From: an uncultured delta proteobacterium
GTDB lineage: Bacteria; Desulfobacterota; Binatia; DP-6
Length of the DNA stretch: 64,000 nt
Reading direction: 5' to 3'
NCBI GenBank assembly: GCA_963815115.1
Contig: CAWFFN010000009.1
Location: 800,001-864,000 of the forward strand
Below are positions 3,863 through 59,343 of the stretch, piece after piece. The notes under the pieces are model-generated. The model was not told where the DNA came from and made no database searches. It saw only the letters and a program-made list of their open reading frames with translations. Numbering within the stretch: position 1 is the first letter of the stretch; each line of letters starts with the position of its first letter. The position numbers and the translations under genes were made by a program.

Positions 3863-3920
3863 CGTCCTCTCCTTCCAGCTCGCGTTTCACTTGCAAGGCC
3901 GCTGACGTCTCGCCCGGCCG

Positions 3921-4415: not shown

Positions 4416-4427
4416 GGTGTCCAGTTG

Positions 4428-9405: not shown

Positions 9406-9506
9406 CCTCGTGGCGCTCGGCAGCGTAGTTCAGAGCGGGGGGTACGCGGCGGCCTCGAGGGGCGGCTGCTCTCGCCCGGTCAACGAGCGAAGGAGATCCT
9501 GAAGGC

Positions 9507-31977: not shown

Positions 31978-32940
<963 letters not shown>

Positions 32941-32946
32941 GCGGGA

Positions 32947-33774
32947 TCATTCGGGCTCCGACGGCCGATCCCTCCGGTTCCGCGCGGGGCGGCTGGCAGG
33001 CGGCGTCGCGTCGCCGGTTCCGGTTCCCACCTCGGCGAAGACCCGGAGTGCGATCACGATGCCGATGACGGTGCCGCCGTCGTCACGGATCAGCGTGCTC
33101 ACCTCCTCGACCGCCATTTGCCGGCCCTCGCGGGTCAGCAGCAGCCCCTCGGCCGTTCCCCCGCTGGCGATCATCTCCCCGCCGCGCAACGCCCGCGGTC
33201 TGCCGGGAATCGTCACTCGGAGCACGTCGGCCAGGTCGCGGCCCTCCGCCTCGGCGGCCTTCCAGCCCGTCAGCGTCTCGGCGGCCCGGCTCATGAAGCG
33301 GATGCGCCAGTCGCCATCCGTGGCGATCACCGACTCGCCGATGCTGCGCAGGGTGGCGGTGAGCCAGCGCTCGCTCTCCCGCAGGCGGCGCTCCATCTCG
33401 TGGCGGTAGAGGGCCATCTCGATGACGATGTGCAGCTCGCGCTCCTGGAAGGGCTTGAGCAGGTAGCCGTACGGTTCGGTGATGCGCGCCCGCTCCAGCG
33501 TCGCCGGATCGGCGTACGCGGTGAGATAGATGACCGGGATGTCGAAGGCCTGCCGGACGTGCTGCGCCGTCTCGACGCCGTCCATGTCGTCCCGCAGGTG
33601 GATGTCCATCAGGACGAGGTCGGGGCGGAGGGCGTCCGCACGTTCGATGGCGTCGCGGCCGCGCCCGACCGCGGCGGACACCGCGTAGCCCAGCCGCTGG
33701 AGCGTCGACCGGATGTCGAGCGCGACCGCGGCCTCGTCCTCGACGACGAGGATGCTCGCCGGGCCCTTCCTCAT
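32947..33774 (-). CDS. Response regulator (REC plus PAS, no DNA-binding domain)
   Basis: ILVVEDE, LMDIHL, YLLKPF, then a PAS fold (VIATD...AAETLTGW); ATGA overlap with the kinase. Confidence 0.9.
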   Translation of the reverse strand: MRKGPASILVVEDEAAVALDIRSTLQRLGYAVSAAVGRGRDAIERADALRPDLVLMDIHLRDDMDGVETAQHVRQAFDIPVIYLTAYADPATLERARITEPYGYLLKPFQERELHIVIEMALYRHEMERRLRESERWLTATLRSIGESVIATDGDWRIRFMSRAAETLTGWKAAEAEGRDLADVLRVTIPGRPRALRGGEMIASGGTAEGLLLTREGRQMAVEEVSTLIRDDGGTVIGIVIALRVFAEVGTGTGDATPPASRPARNRRDRPSEPE

Positions 33775-35336
33775 GATCCGGCGAAGAGGATGCGGAACTC
33801 GGTTCCGCCCTCCGAGCGAAGCTCGATGGTCCCGCCGAGCTGCTCCGTCAACGCGCAGACGAGCTGCATCCCGAGCGTCTCGGTGGCGCGGAAGTCGACG
33901 TCGCGGGGAAACCCGACTCCGTCGTCGGCCACGCGCAGGAGATAGCCCCGTGCCTCGTCGGGTCGGACCTCGATCTCGATCTCGCCGCGGCGCCCGTCGG
34001 GGAACGCATGCTTGAGGCAGTTCGACACCAGCTCGTTGAGTGCAAGCCCGAGCGGCACCGCCGCGTCGATCCCGAGGGAGACGTCCTCGACGGCGGCCCT
34101 GATGCCGACCCCCTCCGCCCGCGTGTGGTAGGACCGGCACAGGAGATCGGTCAGGCTGCGGACGTATTCACCGAGGTCGACGCGCGACAGATCGGCCGAC
34201 TGGTAGAGGCGCTCGTGGACCAGGGCCATCGAATGGATGCGGTTGCAGCTCTCGGCGAACATCTCGAGCGCCCCGGGGTCGTGGACGTGGGTCGACTGCA
34301 ACCGCAGCAGGCTCGAGATGACCTGGAGGTTGTTCTTCACGCGGTGATGGATCTCCTCGAGGAGCACCTCCTTCTCGCGCAGCGACGTCTGGATCCGCTC
34401 CGCGCTGGCGCGCACCGCCTCCTCGGCGCGCTTCGACTCGGTGATGTCGTACGCGATCCCCTGGAGAAAGAGTGGATGCCCCTCGTCGTCCCGCACGACC
34501 CGCGCCTCGCCGCGCACCCAGACGACGTTGCCGTCGCGCGTGAGGGCACGGAATTCGGCGCGGAACGGACCGCCGGTCCGGCAGCCGCGCGCGAACTCGC
34601 GGTTGCAACGCTCGCGATCCTCCGGGTGGAGCTGGTTGAACCAGAGGAAGGGATTGCCCAGCCACTCCTCCTGGGTGAAGCCGAGCAGCGCCTCGATCTG
34701 GGGGCTGACGTACAGCTCGGTCACATCCTCGTTGAGCGCGGCCATGAAGGTGACGGCGGGGATCTGCTCGACCAGCGTGCGGTAGCGAGCCTCGACCTTG
34801 CGCCGCTGCTCCTCCGTCCGCTGCGCGCCGATGAGGCCGCGCACCGCGAGGATCTGCAGCTGCTCGCCGCCGAGCGCGACGCTGGCGGAGGTGGTTTCGA
34901 GGGGGAAGGTGGTGCCGCCGGCATGCTGCCCGACCACGTGGCGCGCGGCCGTCCGCGGGGCGCTCGTGGAGACGGCGTCGCGGTCGTCGGGCGGAAGCAG
35001 GATGGTCGCGATCGGCTTCCCGATCGCGTCTGCGGCGGAGTAGCCGAAGATCGCCTCCGCAGCCGCGTCCCACGAGTGGACGAAGCCGGCGCCGGTCACC
35101 GTGATGATCGCGGCTGCCCCGGCTTCGGCGCCCGCCCGAGGCCGGTCGCGGCCGGCGGGTATCCTCGTCCGGATTCCGGCCCCGATGATCGACGCATCGA
35201 CGGAAAACGCCCGCACCATCTCCTGCAGCACTGCCTCCGCCTCCTCGGGCGTCGAGGGTAGGGGATCGAGGACCGAGGAATCCGCCCCGCCGGCCGGGTC
35301 GTGACGTGTCGAGCGACGCGAGCCGTTGCGCGCCAT
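33771..35336 (-). CDS. Cytoplasmic PAS-PAS sensor histidine kinase, HisKA_2 type
   Basis: Two PAS domains, EIHHRVKNNLQ H-box, NELVSNCLKHAF and DDGVGFP; starts 5 nt after the hydrogenase large-subunit stop. Confidence 0.92.
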   Translation of the reverse strand: MARNGSRRSTRHDPAGGADSSVLDPLPSTPEEAEAVLQEMVRAFSVDASIIGAGIRTRIPAGRDRPRAGAEAGAAAIITVTGAGFVHSWDAAAEAIFGYSAADAIGKPIATILLPPDDRDAVSTSAPRTAARHVVGQHAGGTTFPLETTSASVALGGEQLQILAVRGLIGAQRTEEQRRKVEARYRTLVEQIPAVTFMAALNEDVTELYVSPQIEALLGFTQEEWLGNPFLWFNQLHPEDRERCNREFARGCRTGGPFRAEFRALTRDGNVVWVRGEARVVRDDEGHPLFLQGIAYDITESKRAEEAVRASAERIQTSLREKEVLLEEIHHRVKNNLQVISSLLRLQSTHVHDPGALEMFAESCNRIHSMALVHERLYQSADLSRVDLGEYVRSLTDLLCRSYHTRAEGVGIRAAVEDVSLGIDAAVPLGLALNELVSNCLKHAFPDGRRGEIEIEVRPDEARGYLLRVADDGVGFPRDVDFRATETLGMQLVCALTEQLGGTIELRSEGGTEFRILFAGS

Positions 35337-35341
35337 GACGC

Positions 35342-37108
35342 TCACCCCGCCTGGGCTCCGAGCAGTGGCGAATGCACGGCGCGGACGGTGCGGCCGCCGC
35401 CCAGGTACATGTGGACGCCACAGGGGAGGCAGGGATCGAAGCTCCGCACCGTCCGCAGGATGTCGATGCCCTTGAAGGCGCTCGCGCCGTTCTCCTCGAA
35501 CAGCGGCGTGTTCTGCACCGCGTCCTCGAAGGGTCCTGGCGTGCCGTGCACGTCGCGCGGGCTCGCGTTCCACGTCGTCGGAGGGAAGGGGTGGTAGTTG
35601 GCGATCTTGCCGTCCCGGATCACGAGATGATGGGAGAGAAGGCCGCGCACGGCCTCGTGGAATCCGCAGCCGATGGCGTCGTCAGGGACCTCGAACGGGG
35701 TGGACGTCCGGGTCCGCCCGGCGTGCACCTCCTCGAGGGCGCGCTCGGCGAAGTAGAGAGCCGCCGCAGCCGCATACGCCTGGAAGTACGTCCGTGCGCG
35801 GTTGCGCTCGAGGGTGTTGCTCCAGGCCGGGATCTTCCACTCGAACGCGACCTCGGGGAGTGTCGCCGACTTGGGAAGGGTGATCGCTATGCTCCGACCC
35901 GTCGCCCGAACGTAGCCGATGTCGACGCGCCCGGCGAGCGCGGTCACCCACAGGCGCGCGAGCGGGCCGCCCCCGCTGTCGAGCGCGAGGAGCTGCTGGC
36001 TGGCGGGCTGCAGCCAGCGGGGCGAGGTGACCCACGTGTAGCGTCCCGCGAAATCGCGCTTCTGGGGTCGCGGGATGGTGCGCTGGTTCCACGGATGCCG
36101 CCGGTCGACCGGGTTGCCGAGCGGGTCTTCCTTCACCAGCGGCTCGGCCGTCTCCCAGTCGTCATAGTACGAGCTGCCGAGGAGGACGCGGATGCCGAGG
36201 TTGACCTCGACCAGATCGGTGGTGACGAGCTCGCCGTCGATGACGACGCCCGGCGTGACGTACATCTCCCGCCCCCACCGGCTCATGGTGCGGTAGTCAT
36301 AGTCGCAGGCCTCCGGATTCTGGAACGAGCCCCAGCAGCCGAGCAACGTGCGACGCTGGCCGACGGCTTCGTAGCCGGGGAGCGCCGCGTAGAAGAAGTC
36401 GAACAGGTCGTCGTGCAGCGGCACGACCTGCTTCATGAACTCGACGTACTGCATCAGGCGGCTCAGGTACTCGGTCAGGAGCTGCACGCTCGCCGTCGTG
36501 CCGATCCCTCCCGGGTAGAGCGTGGACGGATGCACGTGACGGCCGCCGATCAGGCAGTACATCTCCCGCGCCAGACGGCTCGTGCGCAACGCTTCCCGGT
36601 AGAACGCGCCGCTGAAGGGATTGAGCGCGCGCATGATGTCGCCGATCGTCCGGTAGCCGTGCTTGTCCGCGTTGGGGGCGGCGGTCTGGTTGGCCTTCTC
36701 GAGGACGCCCGGGTTCGTTTCCCCGACCATGCGCTCGCAGAAGTCCACCCCGACGAGGTTGTCCTGGAAGAGGTTGTGGTCGAACATGTACTCGGCGGCC
36801 TCGGCGAGGTTGATCAGCCAGTCGGCGAGCGGCGGCGGCTTCACCCCGAAGGTCATGTTCTGGGCGTAGAGCGCGCAGGTGGCGTGGTTGTCGCCGCAGA
36901 TGCCGCAGATGCGGCTGGTGATGAAGTGCGCGTCGCGCGGATCCTTCCCCTGCATGAAGATGCTGTAGCCGCGGAAGATCGACGACGTGCAGTGACACTC
37001 GGCCACCCGGCGATTGCCGAGGTCGATCCGCGTGTGCAGGCCGAGGCTGCCGACGACGCGCGTGATCGGATCCCACGACATCTCGATGAGCTCGGGTGTC
37101 GAGCTCAT
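35342..37108 (-). CDS. hhyL: [NiFe]-hydrogenase large subunit, group 1h-like, second copy
   Basis: WDPITRVVGSLG, L1 TSRICGICGDNH and L2 SFDPCLPCGVH plus C-terminal extension; colinear with 41929-43716. Confidence 0.93.
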   Translation of the reverse strand: MSSTPELIEMSWDPITRVVGSLGLHTRIDLGNRRVAECHCTSSIFRGYSIFMQGKDPRDAHFITSRICGICGDNHATCALYAQNMTFGVKPPPLADWLINLAEAAEYMFDHNLFQDNLVGVDFCERMVGETNPGVLEKANQTAAPNADKHGYRTIGDIMRALNPFSGAFYREALRTSRLAREMYCLIGGRHVHPSTLYPGGIGTTASVQLLTEYLSRLMQYVEFMKQVVPLHDDLFDFFYAALPGYEAVGQRRTLLGCWGSFQNPEACDYDYRTMSRWGREMYVTPGVVIDGELVTTDLVEVNLGIRVLLGSSYYDDWETAEPLVKEDPLGNPVDRRHPWNQRTIPRPQKRDFAGRYTWVTSPRWLQPASQQLLALDSGGGPLARLWVTALAGRVDIGYVRATGRSIAITLPKSATLPEVAFEWKIPAWSNTLERNRARTYFQAYAAAAALYFAERALEEVHAGRTRTSTPFEVPDDAIGCGFHEAVRGLLSHHLVIRDGKIANYHPFPPTTWNASPRDVHGTPGPFEDAVQNTPLFEENGASAFKGIDILRTVRSFDPCLPCGVHMYLGGGRTVRAVHSPLLGAQAG

Positions 37109-38154
37109 TCGGGGTCTTCCCGCCGCCGACCCGGCCGCCGCCACTCCGGCTCGCGCTCCAGCGACGCGATGGTGAAGTTGCGCAGTGCACGTACGGCGCG
37201 GCCGTACATGAGCACGGCCGAGGACGACATCTTGGCGCCGGGCGGCTCGTCCATGAACGGCATGAACTTGTCGGGGAAGCCCGGCATGGTGCAGCCGATG
37301 CAGACGCCGCCGACGTTCGGGCAGCCACCCACGCCACCCATCCAGCCCCGCTTCGGCACGTTGCATCGCACCACCGGGCCCCAGCAGCCGAGCTTCACGA
37401 TGCACTTGGGCGTGCCGTAGTCGAGGCCGAAGTCGGCCTGCTCGTAGTAGCCGCCGCGGTCGCAGGCTTCGTGCACGGTCTGATCGAAGAGCCACCGTGG
37501 GCGCAGGCAGTCGTCGAGCGGGATCATGGGGGCGCGACCGACCGACTGCCGCAAGAGGTGGAGGAGGGTGTCCATGAAGTTGTCGGGCTGGACCGGGCAG
37601 CCGGGGACGCACACGATGGGGATGTCGCCGCGCGAGCGGAAGTCCCACCCGAGATAGTCCGGCAGCCCCATGCAGCCGGTCGGGTTGCCCGCCATGGCGT
37701 GAATGCCGCCGTACGTCGCGCAGGTACCGGCGGCGACGACGGCCCAGGCGCGCGGCGCCAGGCGGTCGATCCAGGTGCAGGTCAGGATGGGCTGGCCGCT
37801 CGACGGATCGGTGCCGAATCCTGCCCAGTAGCCCTCGTCCTTCCTCGTCTCGTCCGGGATCGAGCCCTCGACGACGAGGATGAAGGGTCCGAGCCTGCCC
37901 GTGGCGGCGCGCTCGAAGGGCTCGAGAAACCGGTCCCCGACTTCGTAGGCCAGCACGGGGTTGTGGAGCTCCACCTTCGGGATGCGGGGGATCGCTCCCA
38001 GGACGAGGTCCTCGAGGCTCGGGTTGGTGGCGGCCGTGATGGCGATCGTGTCGCCGTCACACCCGAGGCCGGCCGTGATCCACAGCACGTGGATCGTCTC
38101 CAGCGGGGCCGGCTCCACTTGCTCGCAGCCGTCGGGCGCTGACTCGTTGGTCAC
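37105..38154 (-). CDS. hhyS: [NiFe]-hydrogenase small subunit, group 1h-like, second copy
   Basis: GLGCDGD, GTCATYGG, VPGCP, HEACDR and GGCPNVGGVCIGCTMPGFPD; no Tat signal; stop overlaps the large-subunit ATG. Confidence 0.93.
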   Translation of the reverse strand: MTNESAPDGCEQVEPAPLETIHVLWITAGLGCDGDTIAITAATNPSLEDLVLGAIPRIPKVELHNPVLAYEVGDRFLEPFERAATGRLGPFILVVEGSIPDETRKDEGYWAGFGTDPSSGQPILTCTWIDRLAPRAWAVVAAGTCATYGGIHAMAGNPTGCMGLPDYLGWDFRSRGDIPIVCVPGCPVQPDNFMDTLLHLLRQSVGRAPMIPLDDCLRPRWLFDQTVHEACDRGGYYEQADFGLDYGTPKCIVKLGCWGPVVRCNVPKRGWMGGVGGCPNVGGVCIGCTMPGFPDKFMPFMDEPPGAKMSSSAVLMYGRAVRALRNFTIASLEREPEWRRPGRRREDPE

Positions 38155-38288: not shown

Positions 38289-39230
38289 CTACCACTCGCG
38301 CCGGAAGGTCGCCCATGTCTTCACCGGCCGCAGGCCGGCCGCCCGGCCGCGCGCGACACGCTGGACGGCGAGCTTGCGGCACGCCTCGTCGATCATCTCC
38401 GTGCCGAAGCGGACGGCGCCTCGACCCTCGACACCGGTCGCGTGGGCGTAGGCCTCGAGCATCGCGGTCGCCCTGTCGAACTCCTCCTGGCTCGGCGTGA
38501 AGGTCTGGTTGAGGGGTTCGATCTGCCCGGGGTGGAGCGCCCACTTGCCGTCGTAGCCGAGCGCCCTCGCCCAGCCTGCCGCGCGGCGCAAGCCCTCCTC
38601 GTCCTTGACGTCGAGGTGGGGGCCGTCGATTGCCTGCACGCCTGCGGCGCGTGCGGCGACGAGGATCGTGCCACGGACCCAGTGCCAGAGGTCGCCGGGA
38701 TACTCCGAAGTGCCGGAACCGCTCACGATGCGAGGAAGCCCGAGCGACGCGCTCAGGTCGGCAGGACCGAGGATGAGGGTCTCGGTCCTCGACGAGGCGC
38801 GTACGATCTCGCGCACGCTCTCGAGTCCCTGCGCGGTCTCGATGAGCAGCTCGAGCCCGACCTTGCCCTCGAGTCGCTCCGCCTCCTCGACCTCGGTCAG
38901 GAGCCGATCCGCGAAGAGGACGTCGGCGGCGGACTCGACCTTGGGAATCACTATGCAGTCCAGACACCGACCGGCTCCGCCGGTCACCTCGACCATGTCG
39001 TCACGGTACCACGGGGTCTCGATGGCGTTCACACGGACCGCCACCGTCTTCTTCGACCAGTCGCCATCGAGAAGCGCGCGGATCACCTGGCCGCGTGCCT
39101 CTTCCTTCGCGGCGGGCGCGACCGCGTCCTCGAGGTCGATGATGACCTCGTCCGCGGGCAGGGTCGCCGCCTTGGCGAGCATCTTCGCCGACGAGCCCGG
39201 GACCGAGAGGCAGGAGCGTCGCGACCTCAT
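38289..39230 (-). CDS. CitE/malyl-CoA lyase family CoA-ester lyase (HpcH/HpaI aldolase fold)
   Basis: RSCLSVPGS, IDLEDAVA, VRVN, IETAQG, GPADL and GKWALHPGQ motifs. Confidence 0.88.
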   Translation of the reverse strand: MRSRRSCLSVPGSSAKMLAKAATLPADEVIIDLEDAVAPAAKEEARGQVIRALLDGDWSKKTVAVRVNAIETPWYRDDMVEVTGGAGRCLDCIVIPKVESAADVLFADRLLTEVEEAERLEGKVGLELLIETAQGLESVREIVRASSRTETLILGPADLSASLGLPRIVSGSGTSEYPGDLWHWVRGTILVAARAAGVQAIDGPHLDVKDEEGLRRAAGWARALGYDGKWALHPGQIEPLNQTFTPSQEEFDRATAMLEAYAHATGVEGRGAVRFGTEMIDEACRKLAVQRVARGRAAGLRPVKTWATFRREW

Positions 39231-39343
39231 GACGGGGAACCGATTCTCCGCGCGTGCCGGCGACTATAGCGCCGGCCCGGCGGAGCGTACAGACTGGGCG
39301 GAGTCGAAGCGCCGATGCGCGGACGGCAACTCGAGGTGATGGC

Positions 39344-40576
39344 ATGACCGAGAACGGAATTCTCGACGGCATGCGGGTGGTCGAGGGGTCGGCGTACGTC
39401 GCCGCACCCCTCGGCGGAATGACCCTGGCTCAGCTGGGGGCCGAGGTGATCCGCTTCGACCAGATCGGCGGCGGGCTCGACTTCAAGCGCTGGCCGGTGG
39501 CCCGTGGCGGCCAGAGCCTCTTCTGGGCAGGCCTCAACAAGGGCAAGCGCTCGATCGCCGTGGACCTCCATTCCCCGCGCGGCCGGGACATCGTGACGGC
39601 GCTCATCTGTGCTCCCGGGCCCGATGCCGGCCTGATGCTCACCAATTTCCCGCTCCGCGGCTGGCTCTCCTACGAGTCGCTGGCGGCCCGCCGCCCGGAT
39701 CTGATCGTGGCCTCGATCGTGGGCAACCACGACGGTTCCTCGGCGGTCGACTACACGGTGAACCCGGCGACGGGCTTCCCGTGGGCGACCGGACCGATGA
39801 ATCTGAACGTCCCCTTCAATCACCTCCTCCCGGCCTGGGACGCGATCACCGGGACGCTGGCGGTCACCGGCCTCCTGGCCGCCGAGCGCCATCGACGGCG
39901 CTGCGGGAAGGGACAGGTCGTGCGCCTCGCGCTCTCGGACGTGGCCTTCGCCATGGTCGGGAACCTGGGCAAGATCGCCGAGGTGCAGGTCAACCGGGAG
40001 GAGCGCCCGAAGTACGGCAACTACCTCTACGGGGCGTTCGGTCGCGACTTCGCCACCCGCGACGGGAGGCGCATCATGGTCGTCGCGCTCACCAAGAGCC
40101 AGTGGGACAGCCTGTGCGCGGCGACCGAGCTGCACGACGCCCTGGCGGTGGTCGAGCGCCGGATGGGCCTCGACTTCGACCAGGAGGGCGATCGGTTCCT
40201 CGCGCGGGAGGTGATCGCGGCGATCCTGAAGCCCTGGATCATCACCCGGCCGCTGGACGAGGTGCGCGCGCGCTTCGACGCCCAGGGCGTGTGCTGGGGG
40301 CCCTACCAGACCTTCACCGAGCTGGTGACGGCCGATCCTCGCTGCTCGCCCGCGAATCCGATGTTCGCGGAGGTGGAGCAGCCCGGGATCGGGACCTACC
40401 GCATGCCGGCATCGCCGCTGGATTTCCACGCGGTGCCTCGCCTCCCGCCGCGCCGGGCCCCGGTCCTCGGCGAGCACACCGACGAGGTCCTGGCGACGGT
40501 CCTCGGGTTGCCGGAGGCCGAGATCGGCCGCCTGCACGACGACGGCGTGATCGCGGGTCCCCGGTCGGATCGATAG
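39344..40576 (+). CDS. mct: Family III CoA-transferase, mesaconyl-CoA C1-C4 transferase (2-methylfumaryl-CoA isomerase)-like
   Basis: GILDGMRVVEGSAYVAAPLGGMTLAQLGA, GGGLDFKRWP, SLFWAGLNKGKRS and VDYTVNP match the Mct subfamily as I recall it. Confidence 0.85.
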   Translation: MTENGILDGMRVVEGSAYVAAPLGGMTLAQLGAEVIRFDQIGGGLDFKRWPVARGGQSLFWAGLNKGKRSIAVDLHSPRGRDIVTALICAPGPDAGLMLTNFPLRGWLSYESLAARRPDLIVASIVGNHDGSSAVDYTVNPATGFPWATGPMNLNVPFNHLLPAWDAITGTLAVTGLLAAERHRRRCGKGQVVRLALSDVAFAMVGNLGKIAEVQVNREERPKYGNYLYGAFGRDFATRDGRRIMVVALTKSQWDSLCAATELHDALAVVERRMGLDFDQEGDRFLAREVIAAILKPWIITRPLDEVRARFDAQGVCWGPYQTFTELVTADPRCSPANPMFAEVEQPGIGTYRMPASPLDFHAVPRLPPRRAPVLGEHTDEVLATVLGLPEAEIGRLHDDGVIAGPRSDR

Positions 40577-40774
40577 CCCCTGCAGGCGGTCGTGGCCCGG
40601 ATGGCGCCGCTGGTGTCGTGCTGTCGTGCGACGGCGCGCGACACGATCTTTTCCAATGAAAACGTCAAGTATCGGGGTGAGGCGTAGCTCTGCACCGTCG
40701 CAGGGCGACGCGACGATTCCTTCCACGGCTCCACGAAATACTGCAGATTCCGCATAGTCCGCTCGTGCTCCCTG

Positions 40775-40790
40775 CGGTACGGATAGTGCA
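40775..40790 (+). promoter_or_regulatory. Sigma-54 (-24/-12) promoter of the hhySL operon
   Basis: CGGTACGGATAGTGCA with GG at 40776-77, 10-nt spacer and GC at 40788-89; about 85 nt upstream of hhyS. Confidence 0.65.
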
Positions 40791-40873: not shown

Positions 40874-41911
40874 ATGCCGTCGGAAGAAGGACCGCTCGTC
40901 CACATCCTGTGGCTGAACTCGGGACTCGGTTGCGACGGGGATTCGGTCGCGCTCACCGCCGCGATGCAGCCCAGCATCGAGGACATCGTGCTGGGTGCCC
41001 TCCCGGGCCTGCCGCGCGTCGCGGTGCACTGGCTGCTCATCGACTACGAGGTCGGTGACGAGTTCATGCGCTGGTTCTGGAAGGCGGACCGGGGGGAGAT
41101 CGATCCCTTCGTGCTCGTCGTCGAAGGCTCGATCCCGAACGAGGCGATCAAGTCCGAGGGGTACTGGGCCGCGATGGGCAACCGCGTCGAAGGCGGTGGG
41201 CGCGACACCCAGCCCATGACCACCAGCGAGTGGCTGGATCGGCTCGCTCCGAAGGCGCTCGCCGTTCTCGCCGTCGGGACCTGCGCCACCTACGGCGGAA
41301 TCCATGCGATGTCCGGGAACCCGACCGGCGCCATGGGCGTGCCGGACCACCTGGGCTGGGGCTGGAAGTCGAAGGCCGGCATCCCGATCGTCTGCGTGCC
41401 CGGCTGCCCGATCCATCCCGACAATCTCGCCGAGACGATCCTCTATCTCCTCTACCAGGCGACCGGCGCGGCACCCATGATCCCGCTCGACGAACAGCTC
41501 CGGCCGACGTGGCTCTTCGGCGCCACCGTGCACGAGGGCTGCGACCGCGCCGGCTACTACGAGCAGGGCGAGTTCGCCACCGAGTACGGCACGCCCACGT
41601 GCATCGTGAAGCTCGGCTGCTACGGGCCCGTCGTCAAGTGCAACGTGCCGAAGCGGGGCTGGGTCGGCGGCGTCGGCGGTTGCCCGAACGTCGGTGGCAT
41701 CTGCATCGGGTGCACCATGCCGGGCTTCCCCGACAAGTTCATGCCGTTCATGGACGAGCCGCCCGGCGCCAAGGTGTCGACGCGGATGTCGGGGATGCTC
41801 GGCAGCGCGATCCGGACCCTCCGCGGCTTCACCGAGCACACGATGGACGAGGAGCCCAAGTGGCGCCGCCGTGGCTCGCAGCTCACCACCGGCTACCGGC
41901 CAACCTGGTAA
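40874..41911 (+). CDS. hhyS: Group 1h [NiFe]-hydrogenase small subunit
   Basis: HILWLNSGLGCDGDS, Fe-S ligand motifs, C-terminal LTTGYRPTW; AAGGAGG RBS; no Tat signal. Confidence 0.95.
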   Translation: MPSEEGPLVHILWLNSGLGCDGDSVALTAAMQPSIEDIVLGALPGLPRVAVHWLLIDYEVGDEFMRWFWKADRGEIDPFVLVVEGSIPNEAIKSEGYWAAMGNRVEGGGRDTQPMTTSEWLDRLAPKALAVLAVGTCATYGGIHAMSGNPTGAMGVPDHLGWGWKSKAGIPIVCVPGCPIHPDNLAETILYLLYQATGAAPMIPLDEQLRPTWLFGATVHEGCDRAGYYEQGEFATEYGTPTCIVKLGCYGPVVKCNVPKRGWVGGVGGCPNVGGICIGCTMPGFPDKFMPFMDEPPGAKVSTRMSGMLGSAIRTLRGFTEHTMDEEPKWRRRGSQLTTGYRPTW

Positions 41912-41928
41912 GGGGGAGGACCCGGAAC

Positions 41929-43716
41929 ATGACGACGGCAGTGAAGAAGTCCGACGGCCTGGTCGAGATGAACTGGGATCCGGTCACCCGGATCGTGGGC
42001 AGCCTCGGCATCTACACCAAGATCGACTTCTCGAAGAAGATCGTCGCGGAGTGCCACAGCACGTCGTCGATCTTCCGCGGGTACAGTATCTTCATGAAGG
42101 GGAAGGACCCGCGCGATTCCCATTTCATCACGAGTCGCATCTGCGGGATCTGCGGTGACAACCACGCCACCTGCTCCTGCTACTGCCAGAACATGGCCTA
42201 CGGCGTGAAGCCGCCGCATCTCGGCGAATGGATCGTCAATCTCGGCGAAGCAGCCGAGTACATGTTCGATCACAACATCTTCCAGGAGAACCTGGTCGCG
42301 GTCGACTTCTGCGAGCGCATGGTGAAGGAGACCAATCCGGGCGTGCTCGAGAAGGCGAACAAGAGCGCCGCGCCCAACGCGGACAAGCACGGCTACAAGA
42401 CGATCGGCGACATCATGCGCGCGGCGAATCCGCTCGAGGGCGAGTTCTACCGCGAGGCGCTGCAGGTGAGTCGCTGGACCCGGGAGATGTTCTGCCTGAT
42501 GGAGGGCCGGCACGTCCATCCGTCGACGCTCTATCCCGGCGGGGTCGGCACGGTCGCGACGGTGCAGCTCTTCACGGACTACCTGACGCGCCTGATGCGC
42601 TACGTCGAGTTCCTGAAGCGCTGCGTGCCGATGCACGACGACCTGTTCGACTTCTTCTACGAGGCGCTGCCGGGATACGAGGAAGTCGGCCGGCGCCGGA
42701 TCCTGCTCGGCTGCTGGGGTTCGTTCCAGGATCCCGAGGCGTGCAACTTCAAGTACGGCGACATGACCGACTGGGGCCGGAAGATGTTCGTCACGCCCGG
42801 CATAGTGGTCGACGGCAAGCTGGTCACCAACGATCTCGTCAAGATCAACCTCGGAATCCGCATCCTCCTCGGTCACTCCTACTACGAGGACTGGGAGGAC
42901 CAGGAGATGTTCGTCACCAAGGATCCCCTCGGGAACCCGGTCGACCGCCGCCATCCGTGGAACCAGCACACGATCCCGCGCCCGCAGAAACGCGACTTCG
43001 ACGGTAAGTACAGCTGGGTGATGGCACCGCGGTGGTTCGACGGCAAGGATCACCTCGCTCTCGACACGGGCGGCGGCCCCATCGCCCGCCTGTGGTCGAC
43101 GGCACTCTCGGAGCTCGTCGGCAGCAAGGACCGGCCGACCAACGGCTACGTCCAGGCGACCGGCAAGAGCGTCGTGATCAACCTGCCGAAGAGCGCGACC
43201 CGGGGGCCGGTCACGTTCGAGTGGAAGGTCCCGAAGTGGTCGAACACGATCGAGCGCGACCGCGCCCGCACCTACTTCCAGGCCTATTCCTGTGCCTGCG
43301 CGCTCTACTTCATCGAGCAGGCGCTCAAGGAGGTGCGTGCCGGGCACACCAAGACCTGGGAGCCCTTCAAGGTGCCGAGCGATGCCATCGGCTGCGGGTT
43401 CACCGAGGCGGTGCGCGGCGTCCTCTCGCACCACATGGTGATCCGGGGCGGCAAGATCGCCAACTATCACCCGTACCCGCCCACGCCGTGGAACGGGAAT
43501 CCGCGCGACATCTACGGCACGCCCGGCCCGTACGAGGACGCGGTCCAGAACACGCCGATCTTCGAGGAGAACGCTCCCGACAAGTTCAAGGGCATCGACA
43601 TCATGCGCTCCGTGCGCAGCTTCGATCCCTGCCTGCCGTGCGGCGTGCACATGTTCCTCGGCCACGGACGGGTCCTCGAGCGAATCCACTCACCATCGGC
43701 GTTGAACAATGCGTAG
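41929..43716 (+). CDS. hhyL: Group 1h [NiFe]-hydrogenase large subunit
   Basis: EMNWDPVTRIVGSLG, TSRICGICGDNH and SFDPCLPCGVH; GGAGGA RBS. Confidence 0.97.
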   Translation: MTTAVKKSDGLVEMNWDPVTRIVGSLGIYTKIDFSKKIVAECHSTSSIFRGYSIFMKGKDPRDSHFITSRICGICGDNHATCSCYCQNMAYGVKPPHLGEWIVNLGEAAEYMFDHNIFQENLVAVDFCERMVKETNPGVLEKANKSAAPNADKHGYKTIGDIMRAANPLEGEFYREALQVSRWTREMFCLMEGRHVHPSTLYPGGVGTVATVQLFTDYLTRLMRYVEFLKRCVPMHDDLFDFFYEALPGYEEVGRRRILLGCWGSFQDPEACNFKYGDMTDWGRKMFVTPGIVVDGKLVTNDLVKINLGIRILLGHSYYEDWEDQEMFVTKDPLGNPVDRRHPWNQHTIPRPQKRDFDGKYSWVMAPRWFDGKDHLALDTGGGPIARLWSTALSELVGSKDRPTNGYVQATGKSVVINLPKSATRGPVTFEWKVPKWSNTIERDRARTYFQAYSCACALYFIEQALKEVRAGHTKTWEPFKVPSDAIGCGFTEAVRGVLSHHMVIRGGKIANYHPYPPTPWNGNPRDIYGTPGPYEDAVQNTPIFEENAPDKFKGIDIMRSVRSFDPCLPCGVHMFLGHGRVLERIHSPSALNNA

Positions 43717-45324: not shown

Positions 45325-45962
45325 GCGAGCTCGCCTTCGCGATCCTCGGCGCCCGCCCCGAGCCGTACGCGGCGGTTCCCACGATGGTGTTCCGCCTGCG
45401 CGTGGATGCGAGCGGCGGCGAGACCATCCACACGCTCGCGCTGCGCTGCCAGATCCGGATCGAGCCGCAGCGCCGCCGCTACGCCGCGGACGAGGAGGCG
45501 TCGCTCGAGGAGCTGTTCGGCACCGCCGCGCGCTGGGGCGACACGCTGAAGCCGTTCCTCTGGACCCATGTCTCCACCATGGCGCCCGGCTTCACCGGGA
45601 AGGGAGAGGTCGACCTCGCGGTGCCCTGTACCTACGACTTCGAGGTCGCCGCCGCGAAGTACCTGCACTCCCTCGAGGACGGCGAGATCCCGCTGGTCTT
45701 CCTCTTCAGCGGCACCGTCTTCGCGAAGGGCGAGGAGGGCTTGCGGGTGACGCAGGTGCCGTGGGATCGTGAGGCGCGTTACCGTCTGCCCGTCGCGACC
45801 TGGCGCGAGCTCATGGACCGCTACTATCCGAACGCCGGATGGCTCCGGCTACGCCGGGACACCCTCGACGCGCTGCTGAGCCTGAAGGCGCGGCGCGCGC
45901 TGGCCACCTTCGACGAGGTCATCGATGCGCTCCTCGCCGAGGCTGGGGAGCACGCGGCGTGA
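45321..45962 (+). CDS. DUF6084 family hydrogenase accessory protein (HhaB-like)
   Basis: LRCQIRIEPQRRRY, PCTYDFEVAAAKY and FSGTVF motifs. Confidence 0.85.
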   Translation: MSELAFAILGARPEPYAAVPTMVFRLRVDASGGETIHTLALRCQIRIEPQRRRYAADEEASLEELFGTAARWGDTLKPFLWTHVSTMAPGFTGKGEVDLAVPCTYDFEVAAAKYLHSLEDGEIPLVFLFSGTVFAKGEEGLRVTQVPWDREARYRLPVATWRELMDRYYPNAGWLRLRRDTLDALLSLKARRALATFDEVIDALLAEAGEHAA

Positions 45963-47315
45963 CGTTCGAGCACGCCCGGAAGATCGCCGACGCGGTGCTG
46001 TACGAAGGCTACGTCCTCTACCCGTATCGCGCCTCGGCGCGAAAGAACCGGTTGCGCTGGCAGTTCGGCGTGCTCGCGCCACGTAGCTGGTCCGAGGCAG
46101 GCGGGGGCGAGGCCTGGTGGATGCAGACCGCCTGCCTGGTCGAGCCCCGCGCGGAAGCGCGCCTCACCGGCAGGATCCGCTTCCTCCACGTCCTCGCGCG
46201 CACCGTGGAAGAGCTCTCGGATCCCGGCAGCGAGACCTTCCGGCCCGTCGACTCGCTCGACGTCGGCGGACGTCTCTGGACTTCATGGGAGGAGGGCGTC
46301 GAGCGCGAGGTCGACTTCGACGAGGCCTTGCCGCTCGAGGGCAGCGGCGCCGAGCGGCTCGTCCGCTTCTCCTTCCCCGACGATCGCCGGGTGGAGTCCA
46401 TCCGCGACGAGCAGGACCGGCTCGCCGGCCGCCTCGTGCGGACGCAGCGTCCGATCGCGGGCGCGATCCGCGTGTCGGTCGACCGCGTGGCGGGATCACG
46501 CCCGCTCCTCGCGGTGCGCGTCCGGGTCGAGAACCTCACCCCGATCGACACGCCGGGAGCGCCGCGGGAGCAGGCGCTCGGAGCGTTTCTCGTCGGGACC
46601 CACACGCTGCTCGCGGTCCAGGGCGGCGAGTTCGTGTCGTTGCTCGATCATGCGCCGTGGGCGGATGCCGCGGCCGCGGCGTGCGAGAACGTGCGGACGT
46701 GGCCCGTCCTCGTCGGGCCGGAGGGATCGCGCGACGTGATGCTCTCCTCGCCGATCATCCTGCAGGACCATCCCGAGATCGCGCCCGAGAGCGCGGGAGA
46801 TCTCTTCGACGCCACGGAGATCGACGAGATACTGACCTTGAGGACGATGACGCTCACGGAGGAGGAGAAGCGCGAAGCCCGCGCCACCGACCCGCGGGCG
46901 GCCGAGATCATCGATCGCGTCGAGACCATGCCCGCGGAGCTGCTCGAGCGCCTCCACGGCGCCGTCCGCTCGGTGCGCCCGGTGACCGCGCCGGCGGCGG
47001 AGACCGCCCCGTGGTGGGACCCCGGGGTCGACGCGTCGGTCTCGCCGGAGACGGACCGGATCGAGGTGGCGGGCGTCGCCGTGGCACGCGGAAGCCGCGT
47101 GCGGCTCTGTCCCGGCGCGCGGCGCTCGGACGCGCAGGACATGTTCCTCGCCGGCCGGGTGGCCCGGGTCGAGGGCGTCTTCCTCGACGTCGAGGACAAG
47201 CGCTATCTCGCGGTGACGCTCGAGGAGGATCCCGGCGGCCGAGCTGCACCAGTGGCACGGGCGATATCTGTACTTCGCCCCCGACGAGGTCGAGCCCCTG
47301 GAGTCGCGGCCATGA
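45959..47315 (+). CDS. Conserved hydrogenase-cluster protein (HhaC-like), with an apparent +1 frameshift near 47231
   Basis: ADAVLYEGYVLYPY and DATEIDEILTLRTMTLT; removing one C at 47231-47233 gives EEDPAAELHQWHGRYLYFAPDEVEPL and a stop overlapping the next ATG. Confidence 0.8.
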
Positions 47316-47845
47316 GCCGCCGCGTCCTGGTGGCCGGGGTCGGGAACGTCTTCCTCGGGGACGACGGCTTCGGCGTCGAGGTCGCCAGGCGGCTGGCCGG
47401 GGACGCCTTCCCGCCGGGAGTCCAGGTGGCGGACTTCGGGATTCGCGGCGTCCACCTCGCCTACGAGCTGCTCCAGGGCTACGACACGCTGATCCTCGTC
47501 GATGCCGCTCCGCGCGGCGAGACGGCGGGGACGGTCTTCGTCCTCGAGCCCGACTTCGAGCATGCCGACAGCCTGGAGCGTGGCGCGAGCGGCTTCGTGC
47601 TCGATGCCCACGGCATGGATCCGGAGATGGTCCTCGGCATCCTCGCCGACCTGGGCGGCAAGCGGCCGCGGGTAGTGATAGTCGGTTGCGAGCCGGCGGA
47701 GGTGAGGGAGCACATGGGGTTGTCCGCGCCCGTTGCGCGCGCGGTCGACGACGCGGTACGGGTGGTGCGCGAGCTGGTCGAGCAGGAGTGCGGGCACGAG
47801 CCCGCCGGGCGTGAGACGACGAGCGAAACGGAGGTGGAAAAATGA
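47312..47845 (+). CDS. hupD: Hydrogenase maturation endopeptidase (HupD/HyaD family)
   Basis: LVAGVGNVFLGDDGFG, LVDA, DAHGM and VGCEP motifs. Confidence 0.9.
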   Translation: MSRRVLVAGVGNVFLGDDGFGVEVARRLAGDAFPPGVQVADFGIRGVHLAYELLQGYDTLILVDAAPRGETAGTVFVLEPDFEHADSLERGASGFVLDAHGMDPEMVLGILADLGGKRPRVVIVGCEPAEVREHMGLSAPVARAVDDAVRVVRELVEQECGHEPAGRETTSETEVEK

Positions 47846-47946: not shown

Positions 47947-48460
47947 ATGGCCCGATACCGCATCGTGCCGGAACGGTCGCGGATCGAGGCGGAGGCGCGC
48001 TCGAGCCTCCACCCGATCCGCGTCGAGACCGCCGGCCTCGAGGGCTACTTCGAGGCCGAGGTGGCCGGCGATCGCTTCGATCCATCGGTGGTGCCGAGCG
48101 GGCGCGTGGAGATCGACGCCGAGCGGTTGAAGACGGGCAACGGACTCTACGATCGCGAGCTCGAGCGCCGGCTCGAGACGCGGAAATACCCGCGTATCCG
48201 TGGCGAGGTCAGAGGGATGCGCGAGGTCGATTCCGGGCGCCGCTATGTCGTGCGCGGCGATCTCACCTTTCACGGGGTGACGCATCCCGTGGAGGGTGAA
48301 GTGGGGCTGCGGAGCCTGGACGAGCGGACCGTCGAGATCGAGGGCCAGCAGGTCATCGACATGCGGAACTTCGGGCTCGAGCCGCCGCGACTTCTGATGC
48401 TGAAGGTGGAGCCGGAGGTCCGGGTGCGCGGGTCGCGTGGTGGCCCAGCGCGAGGGGTGA
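47947..48460 (+). CDS. YceI family (polyisoprenoid-binding) protein, with an apparent +1 frameshift near 48430
   Basis: [28 protein letters not shown] and IDMRNFGL; removing one G at 48430-48432 gives [12 protein letters not shown]-stop at 48460. Confidence 0.8.
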
Positions 48461-48465
48461 CGGCG

Positions 48466-48735
48466 ATGTGCCTCGGCATTCCCGGCGAGATCGTCGACGT
48501 CCGCCAGGACGACGGCCTCAGGGTCGGGCGCGTTCGCTTCGCGGGCATCACCCGGGACGTCTGCCTCGACTACGTGCCGGATGCCACGGTCGGGGAGTAC
48601 GTGCTCGTGCACGTCGGCTTCGCCATCTCGCGGATCGATCGCGAGGAGGCGGCGCGCGCCTACCGCGTGCTCGAGGAGATCGGGCAGACCGCGGAGCTGA
48701 CGGCGGACCGAGGGCCGCTGGACGAGCCGCCGTGA
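48466..48735 (+). CDS. hypC: Hydrogenase maturation chaperone HypC, copy 1
   Basis: MCLGIPG and [10 protein letters not shown]; own GAGGGG RBS. Confidence 0.93.
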
Positions 48736-56703: not shown

Positions 56704-59343
56704 TCAAGCTGTTGCGCGGCGCGTGCTCTCGGATCGGGAGACTTCGCGCGCGTGGCCGATGATCACCCACAGCCACCCGAGCAACACGGCGGCGCCGAAG
56801 AGACCAACGCCCAGCGTCATCCAACCCAGCTGGCGGGTGTGTTCGGCCAGAGGTTCGAGCGGGCGTCGCGCCCGTTCCTCGGCCTCCTCGACCACGACGA
56901 TCCACTGGTCGCTGTCGTCGGTGGTCCAGCCGGCCAGGTAGAGGCGGTGATCGAGCGGATCTTCGAGGCGCTCGGCGCCGAACGGCCGGGGGCGGAAGCC
57001 GAGTCCCGGCCATTTCATCGGCGGCTGCCCGGGCGCGAGCGGGTTCTCGGGGTGCAGCACGATCTGATCGCGGTCGTTGATCACCACCACCCGGAGCCCG
57101 AGCCCGTCGACCTCCGGCGAGTCGGGTCCGGCGAGCTGCGGCACGTCCTGCACCCAGCGCCGGAGGTCGGCGAGGGTGACGCTGGCGACCAGGACGCCCG
57201 ACGGCGTGCCGCCCTCGGAGCCCGCCCGCCAGATTGGCGTGGATACCGCAATCATCTCGGGGGCTTCCTGGGACCTGGAGACGTAGGGCTCGGAGATGTG
57301 GGTCGCGCGGATGGGGCCAGCCTCCGGCGTGCCGCCGTGGAACCAGTCACGGTCACGGAACGCGCTGCCGACGACGCTGGGATCGAATGGAGCGCGCGCC
57401 TGGATGCGCCCGTCGGCATCGGCGAGCGCCCAGCTCGAGATGCCGGTGCGGGTGAGGCGCGTGCGCATCCGCTCCAGCCGCTCGCCGATCGCCTGCCAGT
57501 TGCCCTGCGCGAACGCCTCGCGCATCTCGTCGCGTCGGGCCGTGCGCTCGACGACGTCTCGCGCGGTGGCGAGCTGGCGCTTCAATGCCTCGGACACCCA
57601 GTGCGCCGCCGCCAGGTTGGTCTGCATGGTCTGGCGCAGGATGGCGTCCTGCGCCCCGGTGATCGCGCGCCGCGAGCGCCCGAGCTGCCACGCCGATGCC
57701 GCGACACCGGCGACCGCGAGGAGGATCAATGCGACGGTCACCGCATAGCGCCGCCGCTCGCGACCGCGCCGGGCATCGGCCGCTGCCTGGCGTGCCGTCG
57801 CTGCGCCGGCGGCAGCCGCCCGCTCGGCCTCGACGGCGGCGCGGCGTGCCCCGAGCGCACGCAGGCGCCGGGCAAGCTCGGCGGCAGATTCGAGCCGGCG
57901 CTCGGGCGTGGCGTCGACGCAGGCGGTGATGTCGGCGCGCAGCAGCTCGTCGTCGACGCGACGCTCCCAGCCAACGCCCAGCGCGCCGCGCAGGCAGCCG
58001 GCCGCGAGCTGGTACAGCATCACTCCCAGCGCGTAGACGTCCGACTGCGTCGTCGCGGGGCTCCCCTCGAGCAGCTCGGGCGCCATGTAGAGCGGCGTGC
58101 CGCTGCTCGAGCCCCCGTCACTCGCCCGCGGGATCGTGAGGCCCGTCCAGGGGATGCCGCGCGCGGCCAGCAGCTCCGGATCGGTGACCAGCCCGATGCC
58201 GAAGTCGGCGAGCCGTGCCCGCGGCGCCCCGGCGCCGTCGCTGGCGATCAGGACGTTGGAGGGCTTCAGGTCCTTGTGCAGCACGCCGACGCGGTGTGCG
58301 GCGGCGAGGGCGTCGGCGACCTGGGCAACCAGCTCCAGCCGCGTGGCGAGCGGCACCTGCTCGAGGCCGCCCTGACGCTCGGCCCAGTCCACCAGGCTGC
58401 CGCCCTCGGTGTATTCCGAGTCGAGGAAGTACGGCGGCTCGTCGATGTGCCAGTCGAGGATGCGCGCGATGTCGATCCGGTCACCGAGGGTTTCCTTCAG
58501 GAGCCGGAACAGCGCGACCTCGCGCTTGAGTCCCCGGACCCGGTCGGACTGGAAGCAGAACTTGAAGACGCGCGTCTCGCAGATGGCCTCGTGCCGGGCC
58601 AGCCACACCTCGCCGAAGCCACCCTCGCCGAGGCGCCGCTCGAGCTTCCAGCCGTGCCGGCCGGGCACCTCCAGTCCGGCGGCCGGCCGCCAGCCGAGGA
58701 TCTCCTCGTCGGCCGGGTGCACGTCGCGGGTCGCCTTCGCGGAGGACGGCGGCGGCTCGAGCGGGGAGAAGCCACGCAGACCGACCTCGAACACCTCGAG
58801 CGGCTCTTCGACGCCCTTGAAGCGATACGGTCCGTGCGCGAGCCACTCCACGCGCCCCACATCGTGATCGGGCACGACGTACTGCCGCACGGAATCGAAG
58901 GCGTGGGGAGTGAGGAGTATCTGCCCGGGCAGCGCCAGTCCCATCACTCGTGCGGTGGTGTCGACGGCGAGCCCGAGCAGGATCTCGTGGCCCGGCCCGC
59001 GCCCCTCGTCCATGAGCAGCGTCTCGCCGATATGGATGCCGATCCGTGCGCGCAGCGGGATGGCGGCGTCGAGTCGCGCCAGCTCCTGCTGGAAGGCGAG
59101 CGCGAAGAAGACCGCGTGCGAGGGCACGTCGAAGCTGGCGAAGAAGCCGTCGCCGGTGAAGTCGCGCTCGACGCCTTCGTGCTCGTGCAGCAGGCGACGG
59201 AAGAGCTGGTTGTGGCGCGCGATCGCCCGCGCGCCGTCCAGGTCGCCGAGACGCCGTTTCAGCTCGGTGGAGCCCGCGAGGTCGGTGAAGAGAAAGACCT
59301 GCAGGAGCCGTCGGGCGTCGCTCGCGACGGCGGGAGTGCTCAT
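56704..59343 (-). CDS. Class III nucleotide cyclase / Ser-Thr kinase / Cache-domain membrane protein
   Basis: FTDLAGST and TGDG cyclase motifs; LGEGGFGEV, HKDLKPSN, DFG and YMAPE kinase motifs; two TM helices flanking a Cache-like region (FRDRDWF, ISEPYVSR). Confidence 0.88.
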   Translation of the reverse strand: MSTPAVASDARRLLQVFLFTDLAGSTELKRRLGDLDGARAIARHNQLFRRLLHEHEGVERDFTGDGFFASFDVPSHAVFFALAFQQELARLDAAIPLRARIGIHIGETLLMDEGRGPGHEILLGLAVDTTARVMGLALPGQILLTPHAFDSVRQYVVPDHDVGRVEWLAHGPYRFKGVEEPLEVFEVGLRGFSPLEPPPSSAKATRDVHPADEEILGWRPAAGLEVPGRHGWKLERRLGEGGFGEVWLARHEAICETRVFKFCFQSDRVRGLKREVALFRLLKETLGDRIDIARILDWHIDEPPYFLDSEYTEGGSLVDWAERQGGLEQVPLATRLELVAQVADALAAAHRVGVLHKDLKPSNVLIASDGAGAPRARLADFGIGLVTDPELLAARGIPWTGLTIPRASDGGSSSGTPLYMAPELLEGSPATTQSDVYALGVMLYQLAAGCLRGALGVGWERRVDDELLRADITACVDATPERRLESAAELARRLRALGARRAAVEAERAAAAGAATARQAAADARRGRERRRYAVTVALILLAVAGVAASAWQLGRSRRAITGAQDAILRQTMQTNLAAAHWVSEALKRQLATARDVVERTARRDEMREAFAQGNWQAIGERLERMRTRLTRTGISSWALADADGRIQARAPFDPSVVGSAFRDRDWFHGGTPEAGPIRATHISEPYVSRSQEAPEMIAVSTPIWRAGSEGGTPSGVLVASVTLADLRRWVQDVPQLAGPDSPEVDGLGLRVVVINDRDQIVLHPENPLAPGQPPMKWPGLGFRPRPFGAERLEDPLDHRLYLAGWTTDDSDQWIVVVEEAEERARRPLEPLAEHTRQLGWMTLGVGLFGAAVLLGWLWVIIGHAREVSRSESTRRATA

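Follow-up and report, generated by a model that had tools for sequence, protein, structure and literature searches.

We analysed 64,000 nucleotides (nt) of DNA from an uncultured delta proteobacterium of the class Binatia (assembly GCA_963815115.1, contig CAWFFN010000009.1, positions 800,001 to 864,000), a stretch called the window below. On its minus strand, between 32947 and 38154, the genes of a second [NiFe]-hydrogenase of group 1h, HhyS2L2, form one block with those of a soluble histidine kinase and a response regulator. With somewhat more confidence than doubt, we conclude that HhyS2L2 most likely delivers an H2/redox signal to a two-component system that switches the hhy genes. In this genus the complete, cytoplasmic hydrogenase would have its main role in signalling to the co-encoded kinase and would probably not serve the respiratory chain. 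The source genome has 6.9 Mb and a G+C content of about 70%, and the named assemblies most closely related to it carry the names 'Candidatus Binataceae' and 'uncultured delta proteobacterium'.

All four genes of the block lie on the minus strand. The first is hhyS2 (37105-38154), coding for a group 1h small subunit of 349 amino acids that belongs to what we call the kinase-associated lineage. Its N-terminus has no RRxF motif and thus no twin-arginine (Tat) signal. It is followed by hhyL2 (35342-37108), a group 1h large subunit of 588 amino acids with both NiFe cysteine pairs kept, and by the gene for the soluble sensor histidine kinase (33771-35336; 521 amino acids with an N-terminal helix, PAS-A, PAS_3, HisKA_2 and HATPase_c). 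The last gene (32947-33774) encodes a response regulator of 275 amino acids made of REC and PAS, without a DNA-binding domain. An earlier note on this DNA had described the genes as tightly packed, and the junctions read exactly so: CCC GAA TGA of hhyS2 overlaps ATG AGC of hhyL2 (ATGA), hhyL2 and the kinase gene are 5 nt apart (TGA-gcgtc-ATG), and TCA TGA of the kinase gene overlaps ATG AGG of the regulator gene (ATGA). The stop/start overlaps are compatible with translational coupling. In a search of sequencing data for 32947-38154, no RNA data set was listed, and the best DNA data set contained a fraction of 0.28 of the sampled words. Pfam assigned Oxidored_q6 and NiFe_hyd_SSU_C to HhyS2, NiFeSe_Hases to HhyL2, and Response_reg and PAS to the regulator. 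On the kinase it placed PAS_3 at residues 208-295, HisKA_2 at 328-403 and HATPase_c at 428-517, together with a weaker first PAS at 76-178. These assignments and the sequence bear out the earlier description of a soluble kinase with two PAS domains, HisKA_2 and an extra N-terminal helix.

The canonical copy, hhyS1-hhyL1 (40874-43716, plus strand; hhyS1 40874-41911, hhyL1 41911-43716), is presumably what the switch regulates. As had been noticed before, the accessory and maturation genes come after this copy: genes for NifU-Rieske, DUF5947, DUF6084, HycI, HypC, HypE, HypF, HypA and HypB proteins follow it up to about 55916. These accessory genes belong behind hhyS1L1, 2.7 kilobases (kb) from hhyS2L2 and on the opposite strand. 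hhyS2L2 has no hhyE, DUF5947, DUF6084, protease or hyp genes of its own and is followed by the kinase and regulator genes only. The gene cluster that marks group 1h (hhyE, conserved hypotheticals, an endopeptidase and hyp genes) is therefore not found with it. Apart from HhyL1 and HhyL2, the genome encodes no full-length large subunit of group 1h.

Both subunits of the second copy keep the group 1h motifs that had been reported for them. GLGCDGD is present in HhyS2, and RICGICGDNH and DPCLPCGVH are present in HhyL2, and both of these are invariant across 30 aligned group 1h large subunits. HhyL2 carries both the L1 and the L2 signature (TSRICGICGDNH and SFDPCLPCGVH), in the wording that we take to apply to group 1h large subunits. 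Ten cysteines, His228 and Asp33 are invariant across 50 aligned small subunits, and we take these residues, following the description of 5AA5, to be the ligands of the three iron-sulfur clusters. HhyL2 also has a 22-residue C-terminal extension beyond His566. Its best solved relative is 5aa5_C (HofG) with 1069 bits, while the next solved hydrogenase scored 160 bits. The group 1h placement of HhyL2 rests on such sequence matches, and NCBIfam gave sub-threshold generic matches only.

The two copies had been called clearly diverged. HhyL2 is 72% identical to HhyL1 (418/581) and HhyS2 is 64% identical to HhyS1 (213/335), so the copies do differ. HhyL2 is, however, also 72-76% identical to HhyL of Acidobacteriota, Burkholderiaceae, Actinoplanes and Chloroflexota. 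Since its identity to HhyL1 equals this cross-phylum range, HhyL2 is not more diverged than other group 1h enzymes.

The adjacency of hhyL2 and the kinase gene is conserved. We fetched 80 loci with homologues of the kinase and looked for hydrogenase neighbours at E 1e-15 or better. The five best homologues were directly downstream of hhyS2-hhyL2-like genes and the other 75 had no hydrogenase neighbour; a sixth such locus, L240, was found later. The order small subunit, large subunit, kinase, regulator is thus present in six other Binatia genomes (L015-L019 and L240), each of which also has a canonical hhySL. The kinase orthologues at these six loci are 55-77% identical to the kinase of the window, and regulator orthologues are present at all of them. 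The regulator of L018 (9489-10988) is longer, with 499 amino acids, and carries a C-terminal histidine-kinase-type ATPase behind REC-PAS; some Binatia therefore use a longer relay than the window does. Among 401 sampled genomes of the class, 24 had a group 1h large subunit, and the four-gene order was found only in the source genome and its two congeners; two unpublished genomes of this sample support none of our claims. A search at the phylum level was uninformative, with a match in 2 of 401 genomes. The window, L015, L018 and L019 have uninterrupted reading frames for both hydrogenase subunits, HhyS2 is split in L016, and HhyL2 is intact in all three same-genus genomes (3/3).

Next, we looked at the input side of the kinase. 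The N-terminal helix, with the motif AExxLxxLAxVF, covers kinase residues 30-46 (35199-35249, minus strand; here PEEAEAVLQEMVRAFSV), with EEAEAVLQEMVRAF at residues 31-44. In an alignment of 41 transducers of Binatia and Acidobacteriota, conservation of A33, L37, A41 and F44 reaches at least 90%, and the helix is the most conserved feature of the transducers across phyla. The motif is also found in two PAS-SpoIIE proteins of Myxococcota. The domain behind it, PAS_3 (residues 208-295; 34452-34715, minus strand), is shared at 45-64% identity by hhy-linked transducers of four phyla. PAS-A (residues 76-178; 34803-35111, minus strand) is FixL-like and has been lost from the two same-genus orthologues, which keep the helix. 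Haem sensing by PAS-A was considered and rejected, since the segment with the FixL proximal histidine falls in a gap and the domain is absent from the same-genus orthologues.

The same input is joined to different outputs. Helix and PAS_3 precede HisKA_2 in Binatia and HisKA_3, encoded with a NarL-type regulator, at the locus L097. They are further joined to a SpoIIE phosphatase (L130, L152) and to a hybrid kinase, HisKA-REC-REC-Hpt (L162). A constant input with swapped outputs, tied to one lineage of small subunits, is what a sensory pair looks like. A predicted complex of HhyS2 (16-349), HhyL2 (1-567) and kinase residues 16-62, supplied as alignments, scored 0.02 against a mark of 0.32, which we count as evidence neither way.

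The tie to the small subunit was seen in the neighbourhoods of related hydrogenases. We retrieved the 80 loci that come closest to HhyL2 and, after setting aside one that repeats L018, counted 79. In 41 of the 79, an extra small-subunit gene stands immediately before a gene with a PAS domain 45-64% identical to the PAS_3 of the kinase. These pairs lie 3-4 kb upstream of a canonical hhySL and are nearly all from Acidobacteriota, and the orphan small subunits of Acidobacteriota keep all the cluster ligands. In L097, for example, the order is small subunit (353 amino acids), kinase (546 amino acids; helix, PAS_3, PAS, HisKA_3 and HATPase), NarL-type regulator, hhyS and hhyL. At three further loci, two from Myxococcota and one from Planctomycetota, a PAS_3 gene lies 3-4.5 kb downstream of hhyL. 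The conserved core of the system is the small subunit with helix-PAS_3 and not the small with the large subunit: the small subunit is an orphan in those 41 loci, and HhyL2 is frameshifted in L240. Separately, at L179 (G672) a PAS/kinase-like gene stands directly upstream of hhyL with no small-subunit gene between.

Phylogeny separates the kinase-linked copies from the canonical ones, as the earlier note had suggested checking. In the small-subunit tree (IQ-TREE, LG+C20, a subset of 60 rows), 25 kinase-associated sequences (17 orphans and 8 that precede a large subunit) were split from 35 canonical ones with a support of 99.9 in the Shimodaira-Hasegawa-like approximate likelihood ratio test (SH-aLRT); FastTree on all 128 rows gave 96. 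The large-subunit tree split 11 rows from 35 with an SH-aLRT of 96.6 (FastTree 98), the 11 being the Binatia L2 sequences, G027, G033, two from Myxococcota, L162 and L098. Because the trees are unrooted, we claim a split and not a clade. In both trees HhyS1 and HhyL1 group with the subunits of Actinoplanes. An extra, divergent small-subunit gene is present at two Paractinoplanes loci (L158:3070-4020 and L170:2736-3677), 2-3 kb upstream of hhySL. Its products are 57-59% identical to HhyS2, have no adjoining kinase-like gene and group with the canonical Actinoplanes subunits. At L098 (Gemmataceae) we observed another two-enzyme arrangement. One strand carries a kinase-lineage small subunit and a PAS_3-only protein; the other carries a kinase-lineage large subunit without an adjoining small subunit, followed by hypF, hypC, hypD, hypE and a second, canonical hhySL.

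In a few proteins, small subunit and kinase are a single chain. The fusion P0008 (761 amino acids, 79% identical to HhyS2) consists of small subunit, helix, PAS_3 and HisKA_2 kinase, and its linker carries the helix motif. This P0008/P0054 type comes from two sources, the second member having 763 amino acids. P0021, whose source names Thermoleophilaceae, is a clean fusion of small subunit, PAS, PAS and HisKA. Two other fusions, P0041 and P0048, were dropped since their middle parts resemble frameshifted translation. The candidate fusion proteins also included many small-large and HypE-small 'fusions'.

From these data the following mechanism can be proposed. HhyS2L2 would split H2, and the kinase would read the redox state of the iron-sulfur chain in the small subunit, docking through its conserved N-terminal helix and the PAS_3 that follows. 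The kinase would then phosphorylate the REC-PAS protein. In this genus, REC-PAS would probably act on a receiver-less sigma-54 activator and in this way set the transcription of the hhyS1L1 operon.

That activator is encoded next to the block (31978-32940, plus strand) and has an AAA+ domain with GSFTGA followed by HTH_8 (Sigma54_activat and HTH_8 in Pfam). Its gene is convergent with the regulator gene and the two stop codons are 6 nt apart. RpoN is encoded in the genome. A candidate sigma-54 promoter of the hhyS1 operon lies at 40775-40790 on the plus strand (CGGTACGGATAGTGCA), a GG-N10-GC site that has 9 of the 12 consensus positions and is unscored statistically; the GG-N10-GC sites upstream of hhyS1 in L015 and L016 have 9/12 and 10/12. 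The strict TGGCAC-N5-TTGC, with one mismatch allowed, had 4 matches in the window against 2.9 expected, none of them near the hydrogenase genes. Further upstream of hhyS1, at 40622-40643, two abutting inverted copies of TGTCGYGCGAC form a candidate regulator site, and the block that holds it is conserved in the three same-genus genomes. Over the whole window, TGTCGYGCGAC was not enriched with one mismatch allowed (10 matches against 12 expected).

Several observations weigh against the sensor reading of HhyS2L2 or narrow it. The first concerns the output. The neighbouring sigma-54 activator, through which the earlier note let the signal run, is real, but this route is conserved only in the three same-genus genomes with the module (the window and two others). 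No sigma-54 activator was seen in the flanks of L017, L018, L019 and L240, and other Binatia have the longer REC-PAS-kinase. A sigma-54 route to hhyS1L1 is therefore plausible for this genus only, given the adjacency in three related genomes and the promoter-like sites.

The second concerns the large subunit. In L240 (Candidatus Binataceae; 8287-10028), hhyL2 has deletions of 1 nt and 2 nt compared with the intact, 85%-identical gene of L018, and its translation would end near residue 325. The hhyS2, kinase and regulator genes of L240 show no such damage, and at a distance of about 8 kb there is a canonical hhyL. The hhyL2 of L017 is interrupted by four TGA and one TAA codons, in a long-read-type assembly in which hhyE is also broken. 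In P0008, the kinase follows the small subunit with no large subunit in between. Elsewhere, then, HhyL2 is dispensable to the module.

Third, only nine alignment positions distinguish kinase-associated from canonical small subunits. The PAS_3 protein of L098 (216 amino acids, no output domain) has no clear helix motif, and the acidobacterial locus L121 has a kinase and a regulator with no small-subunit gene in the 3.2 kb upstream. For the record, L121 (Candidatus Sulfotelmatobacter; 1-5900) carries its helix-PAS kinase and NarL-type regulator upstream of hhySL, and further upstream an ECF (extracytoplasmic function) sigma factor-like gene and a small membrane-protein-like gene.

Finally, the kinase-associated lineage is the sole group 1h enzyme in four genomes, G027, G041, G042 and G043. 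They belong to two Myxococcota, one Planctomycetota and one Binatia, and in each the enzyme sits in a complete hyp/accessory cluster that ends with the transducer. The lineage is evidently able to supply a working hydrogenase. The link to the transducer therefore predates specialisation, and membership of the lineage is not the mark of a sensor. The picture is not that of one lineage converted into a sensor a single time.

Since the C-terminal extension and every catalytic motif are kept, HhyL2 could simply belong to an isoenzyme. HhyS2L2 would then be a second catalytic enzyme, differing for instance in affinity, oxygen response or growth phase and relying on proteins of the neighbouring cluster for maturation and electron transfer. 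The kinase and regulator would be ordinary regulatory proteins, co-transcribed with it by chance, that sense something else through PAS. We consider this explanation unlikely, although the following agrees with it: neither a NiFe or iron-sulfur ligand nor the protease-cleaved extension has been lost, the four genomes above, with full hyp clusters, have no hydrogenase outside this lineage, and the two PAS domains of the kinase could bind a signal of their own.

The selection on the second copy bears on both readings. We estimated the ratio of nonsynonymous to synonymous substitution rates (dN/dS) by the Nei-Gojobori method (NG86) within the genus, excluding the HhyL1-L018 pairs; the pairs compared have dS 0.5-1.4. 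The ratio was 0.17-0.24 for HhyL2 against 0.085-0.137 for HhyL1, and 0.20 for HhyS2 against 0.12-0.15 for HhyS1, with 0.20-0.26 for the kinase core. Being far below 1, these values suit an isoenzyme. Since selection on HhyL2 is purifying yet relaxed, the gene is functional, under a weaker constraint than that on a respiratory enzyme at work. Such relaxed constraint fits a low-turnover sensor and also a redundant isoenzyme. Of the positions with at least 96% conservation among the other group 1h large subunits, each of the five Binatia HhyL2 deviates at 15-23 and most of the other sequences at 0-7 (L014 at 18). Only E96D and T180A/S are common to all five. A second isoenzyme leaves these deviations unexplained. 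It also leaves unexplained why orphan small subunits stand directly before the same transducer in 41 of 79 loci, why P0008 and P0021 unite small subunit and kinase in one chain, and why HhyL2 is broken where S2, kinase and regulator are intact.

These same points raise the question of whether the small subunit alone is the sensor. Its clusters would report redox state or oxygen independently of H2, and HhyL2 would be a leftover that is being lost. The acidobacterial orphans with all cluster ligands, the frameshift in L240, the absence of HhyL2 from P0008 and its relaxed constraint speak for this. We nevertheless judge it quite improbable. HhyL2 is intact in all three same-genus genomes with a dN/dS of 0.17-0.24, and every orphan seen adjoins a canonical hhySL, so that a large subunit is available to borrow. 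To our knowledge, no hydrogenase small subunit is known in a stable form without its large subunit, which we also count against this explanation.

It is very hard to believe that hhyS2L2 is a functionless, decaying duplicate left after the acquisition of an Actinobacteria-like hhy cluster, as might be read from the grouping of HhyS1/HhyL1 with Actinoplanes, the breaks in L240 and L017, the split HhyS2 of L016 and the terminal branch of HhyL2, which is the longest (0.35 vs 0.098), because neither frame is interrupted in the window, L015, L018 or L019, dN/dS is 0.09-0.24 at dS 0.5-1.4 and the ligands are all invariant.

We return to HhyS2L2 as the input of the kinase, for which an evolutionary series may be drawn. 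At its start, one enzyme would both catalyse and carry the transducer at the end of its cluster, as in Myxococcota, one Planctomycetota and one Binatia genome. In the middle stage, seen in this genus and some other Binatia, an Actinobacteria-like second enzyme would have taken over the accessory genes and the old copy would have stayed with the kinase. In the late stage, Acidobacteriota and some Binataceae would retain the small subunit alone with the kinase. It is conceivable, though we would not call it probable, that an intact group 1h receptor for H2 at atmospheric concentrations is the ancestral form of a cross-phylum sensor family. Outputs would have been exchanged at least four times and the large subunit repeatedly lost, the orphan small subunit borrowing the catalytic subunit of the respiratory enzyme.

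The module resembles the sensors of group 2b, namely HoxBC-HoxJ-HoxA of Cupriavidus necator and HupUV-HupT-HupR. In both cases a small and a large hydrogenase subunit are encoded in one block with a soluble PAS kinase, a sigma-54-type activator is adjacent, among the Binatia loci in this genus only, and the catalytic hydrogenase genes are alongside. The order hhyS2-hhyL2-kinase is presumably that of hoxB-hoxC-hoxJ. HhyS2L2 is, however, group 1h by sequence and falls outside group 2; if it is a sensor, it arose independently of 2b. HhyL2 also keeps its C-terminal extension, while the large subunit of group 2b ends at the L2 histidine without a protease-cleaved extension. Here, moreover, the kinase is of the HisKA_2 type with a docking-like helix, the REC-PAS protein has no DNA-binding part and the activator has no receiver. 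In HydDB, group 2b is described as 'histidine kinase-linked, H2 sensing' and 2c as putative, and 1h is placed under H2 scavenging.

A second relative is the extra hhyS of Acidobacteria. Giguere et al. (PMC8027828) mention an extra hhyS about 3,600 bp upstream of the structural genes in two Acidobacteria, as in P. methylaliphatogenes, and a transcript of it detected in one of two strains. These genes (Acidobacteriaceae bacterium KBS 83, Edaphobacter aggregans and Pyrinomonas methylaliphatogenes) belong to the same small-subunit lineage and come with the helix-PAS_3 transducer. The window differs from them in having its own large subunit between hhyS2 and the kinase, HisKA_2 instead of HisKA_3, and REC-PAS instead of a NarL-type regulator. 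With the canonical group 1h enzymes (Hhy/Hof; 5AA5 of Cupriavidus necator), HhyS2L2 shares the L1/L2 motifs, the missing Tat signal and the cluster ligands, with 72-78% identity to HhyL of many phyla, whereas it lacks accessory genes of its own, is followed by kinase and regulator and shows relaxed constraint. The [FeFe]-hydrogenases of group C, putatively sensory according to HydDB, also combine a hydrogenase module with interchangeable outputs, including histidine kinases and Ser/Thr phosphatases. They are of another superfamily, and there the PAS/output part is fused to the catalytic subunit, whereas here the proteins are separate except in the rare fusions.

The survey of Binatota genomes (PMC8262859), in its accessible text, merely counts four group 1h sequences. 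Our search of the literature on group 1h/hhy regulation, hhyS paralogues and Binatota hydrogenases, which covered papers without their supplements, turned up no account of a group 1h enzyme linked to a kinase. The extra acidobacterial hhyS has thus been mentioned in print, and we did not find there the complete-enzyme form with its own large subunit. The module of the window is related to the acidobacterial 'extra hhyS' module but has the complete enzyme, and it is predicted to work like a regulatory hydrogenase outside group 2b.

Some other features of the region were recorded. Between the two hydrogenase operons lie a gene for an HpcH-family aldolase/lyase (38289-39230, minus strand) and one for a family III CoA-transferase (39254-40576, plus strand), whose top model was 2-methylfumaryl-CoA isomerase with 606 bits, under the cut-off of 725. 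In L016 the aldolase gene is oriented oppositely relative to hhyS2. In the maturation cluster, the longest open reading frame at 47947-48735 (plus strand) reads as a YceI-HypC fusion, and the longest at 45839-47845 (plus strand) gives a protein of 668 amino acids whose HycI protease domain is confined to 513-643; the choice of start codon is tentative for both. Beyond the cluster, 56704-59343 (minus strand) encodes a protein of 879 amino acids with nucleotide cyclase and Ser/Thr protein kinase domains and a weak, sub-threshold match to dCache_1.

Oxidation of atmospheric H2 by soil bacteria is the main biological sink of H2, and the known group 2b sensors belong to bacteria that grow on high H2. 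If our reading is true, a sensor derived from a high-affinity enzyme would explain how scavengers adjust expression to traces of H2 or to the redox state of the cell. In the wider scenario of a sensor family that spans Binatia, Acidobacteriota, Planctomycetota and Myxococcota, which we would not call probable, H2 sensing by hydrogenases would have arisen independently a third time, and this family would supply the regulator still missing for atmospheric H2 oxidation in major soil phyla. Since the Binatia form has retained its own catalytic subunit, it makes the idea of H2 sensing directly testable. It would also link three architectures in one series: the single enzyme with a transducer, the two-enzyme arrangement and the orphan small subunit.

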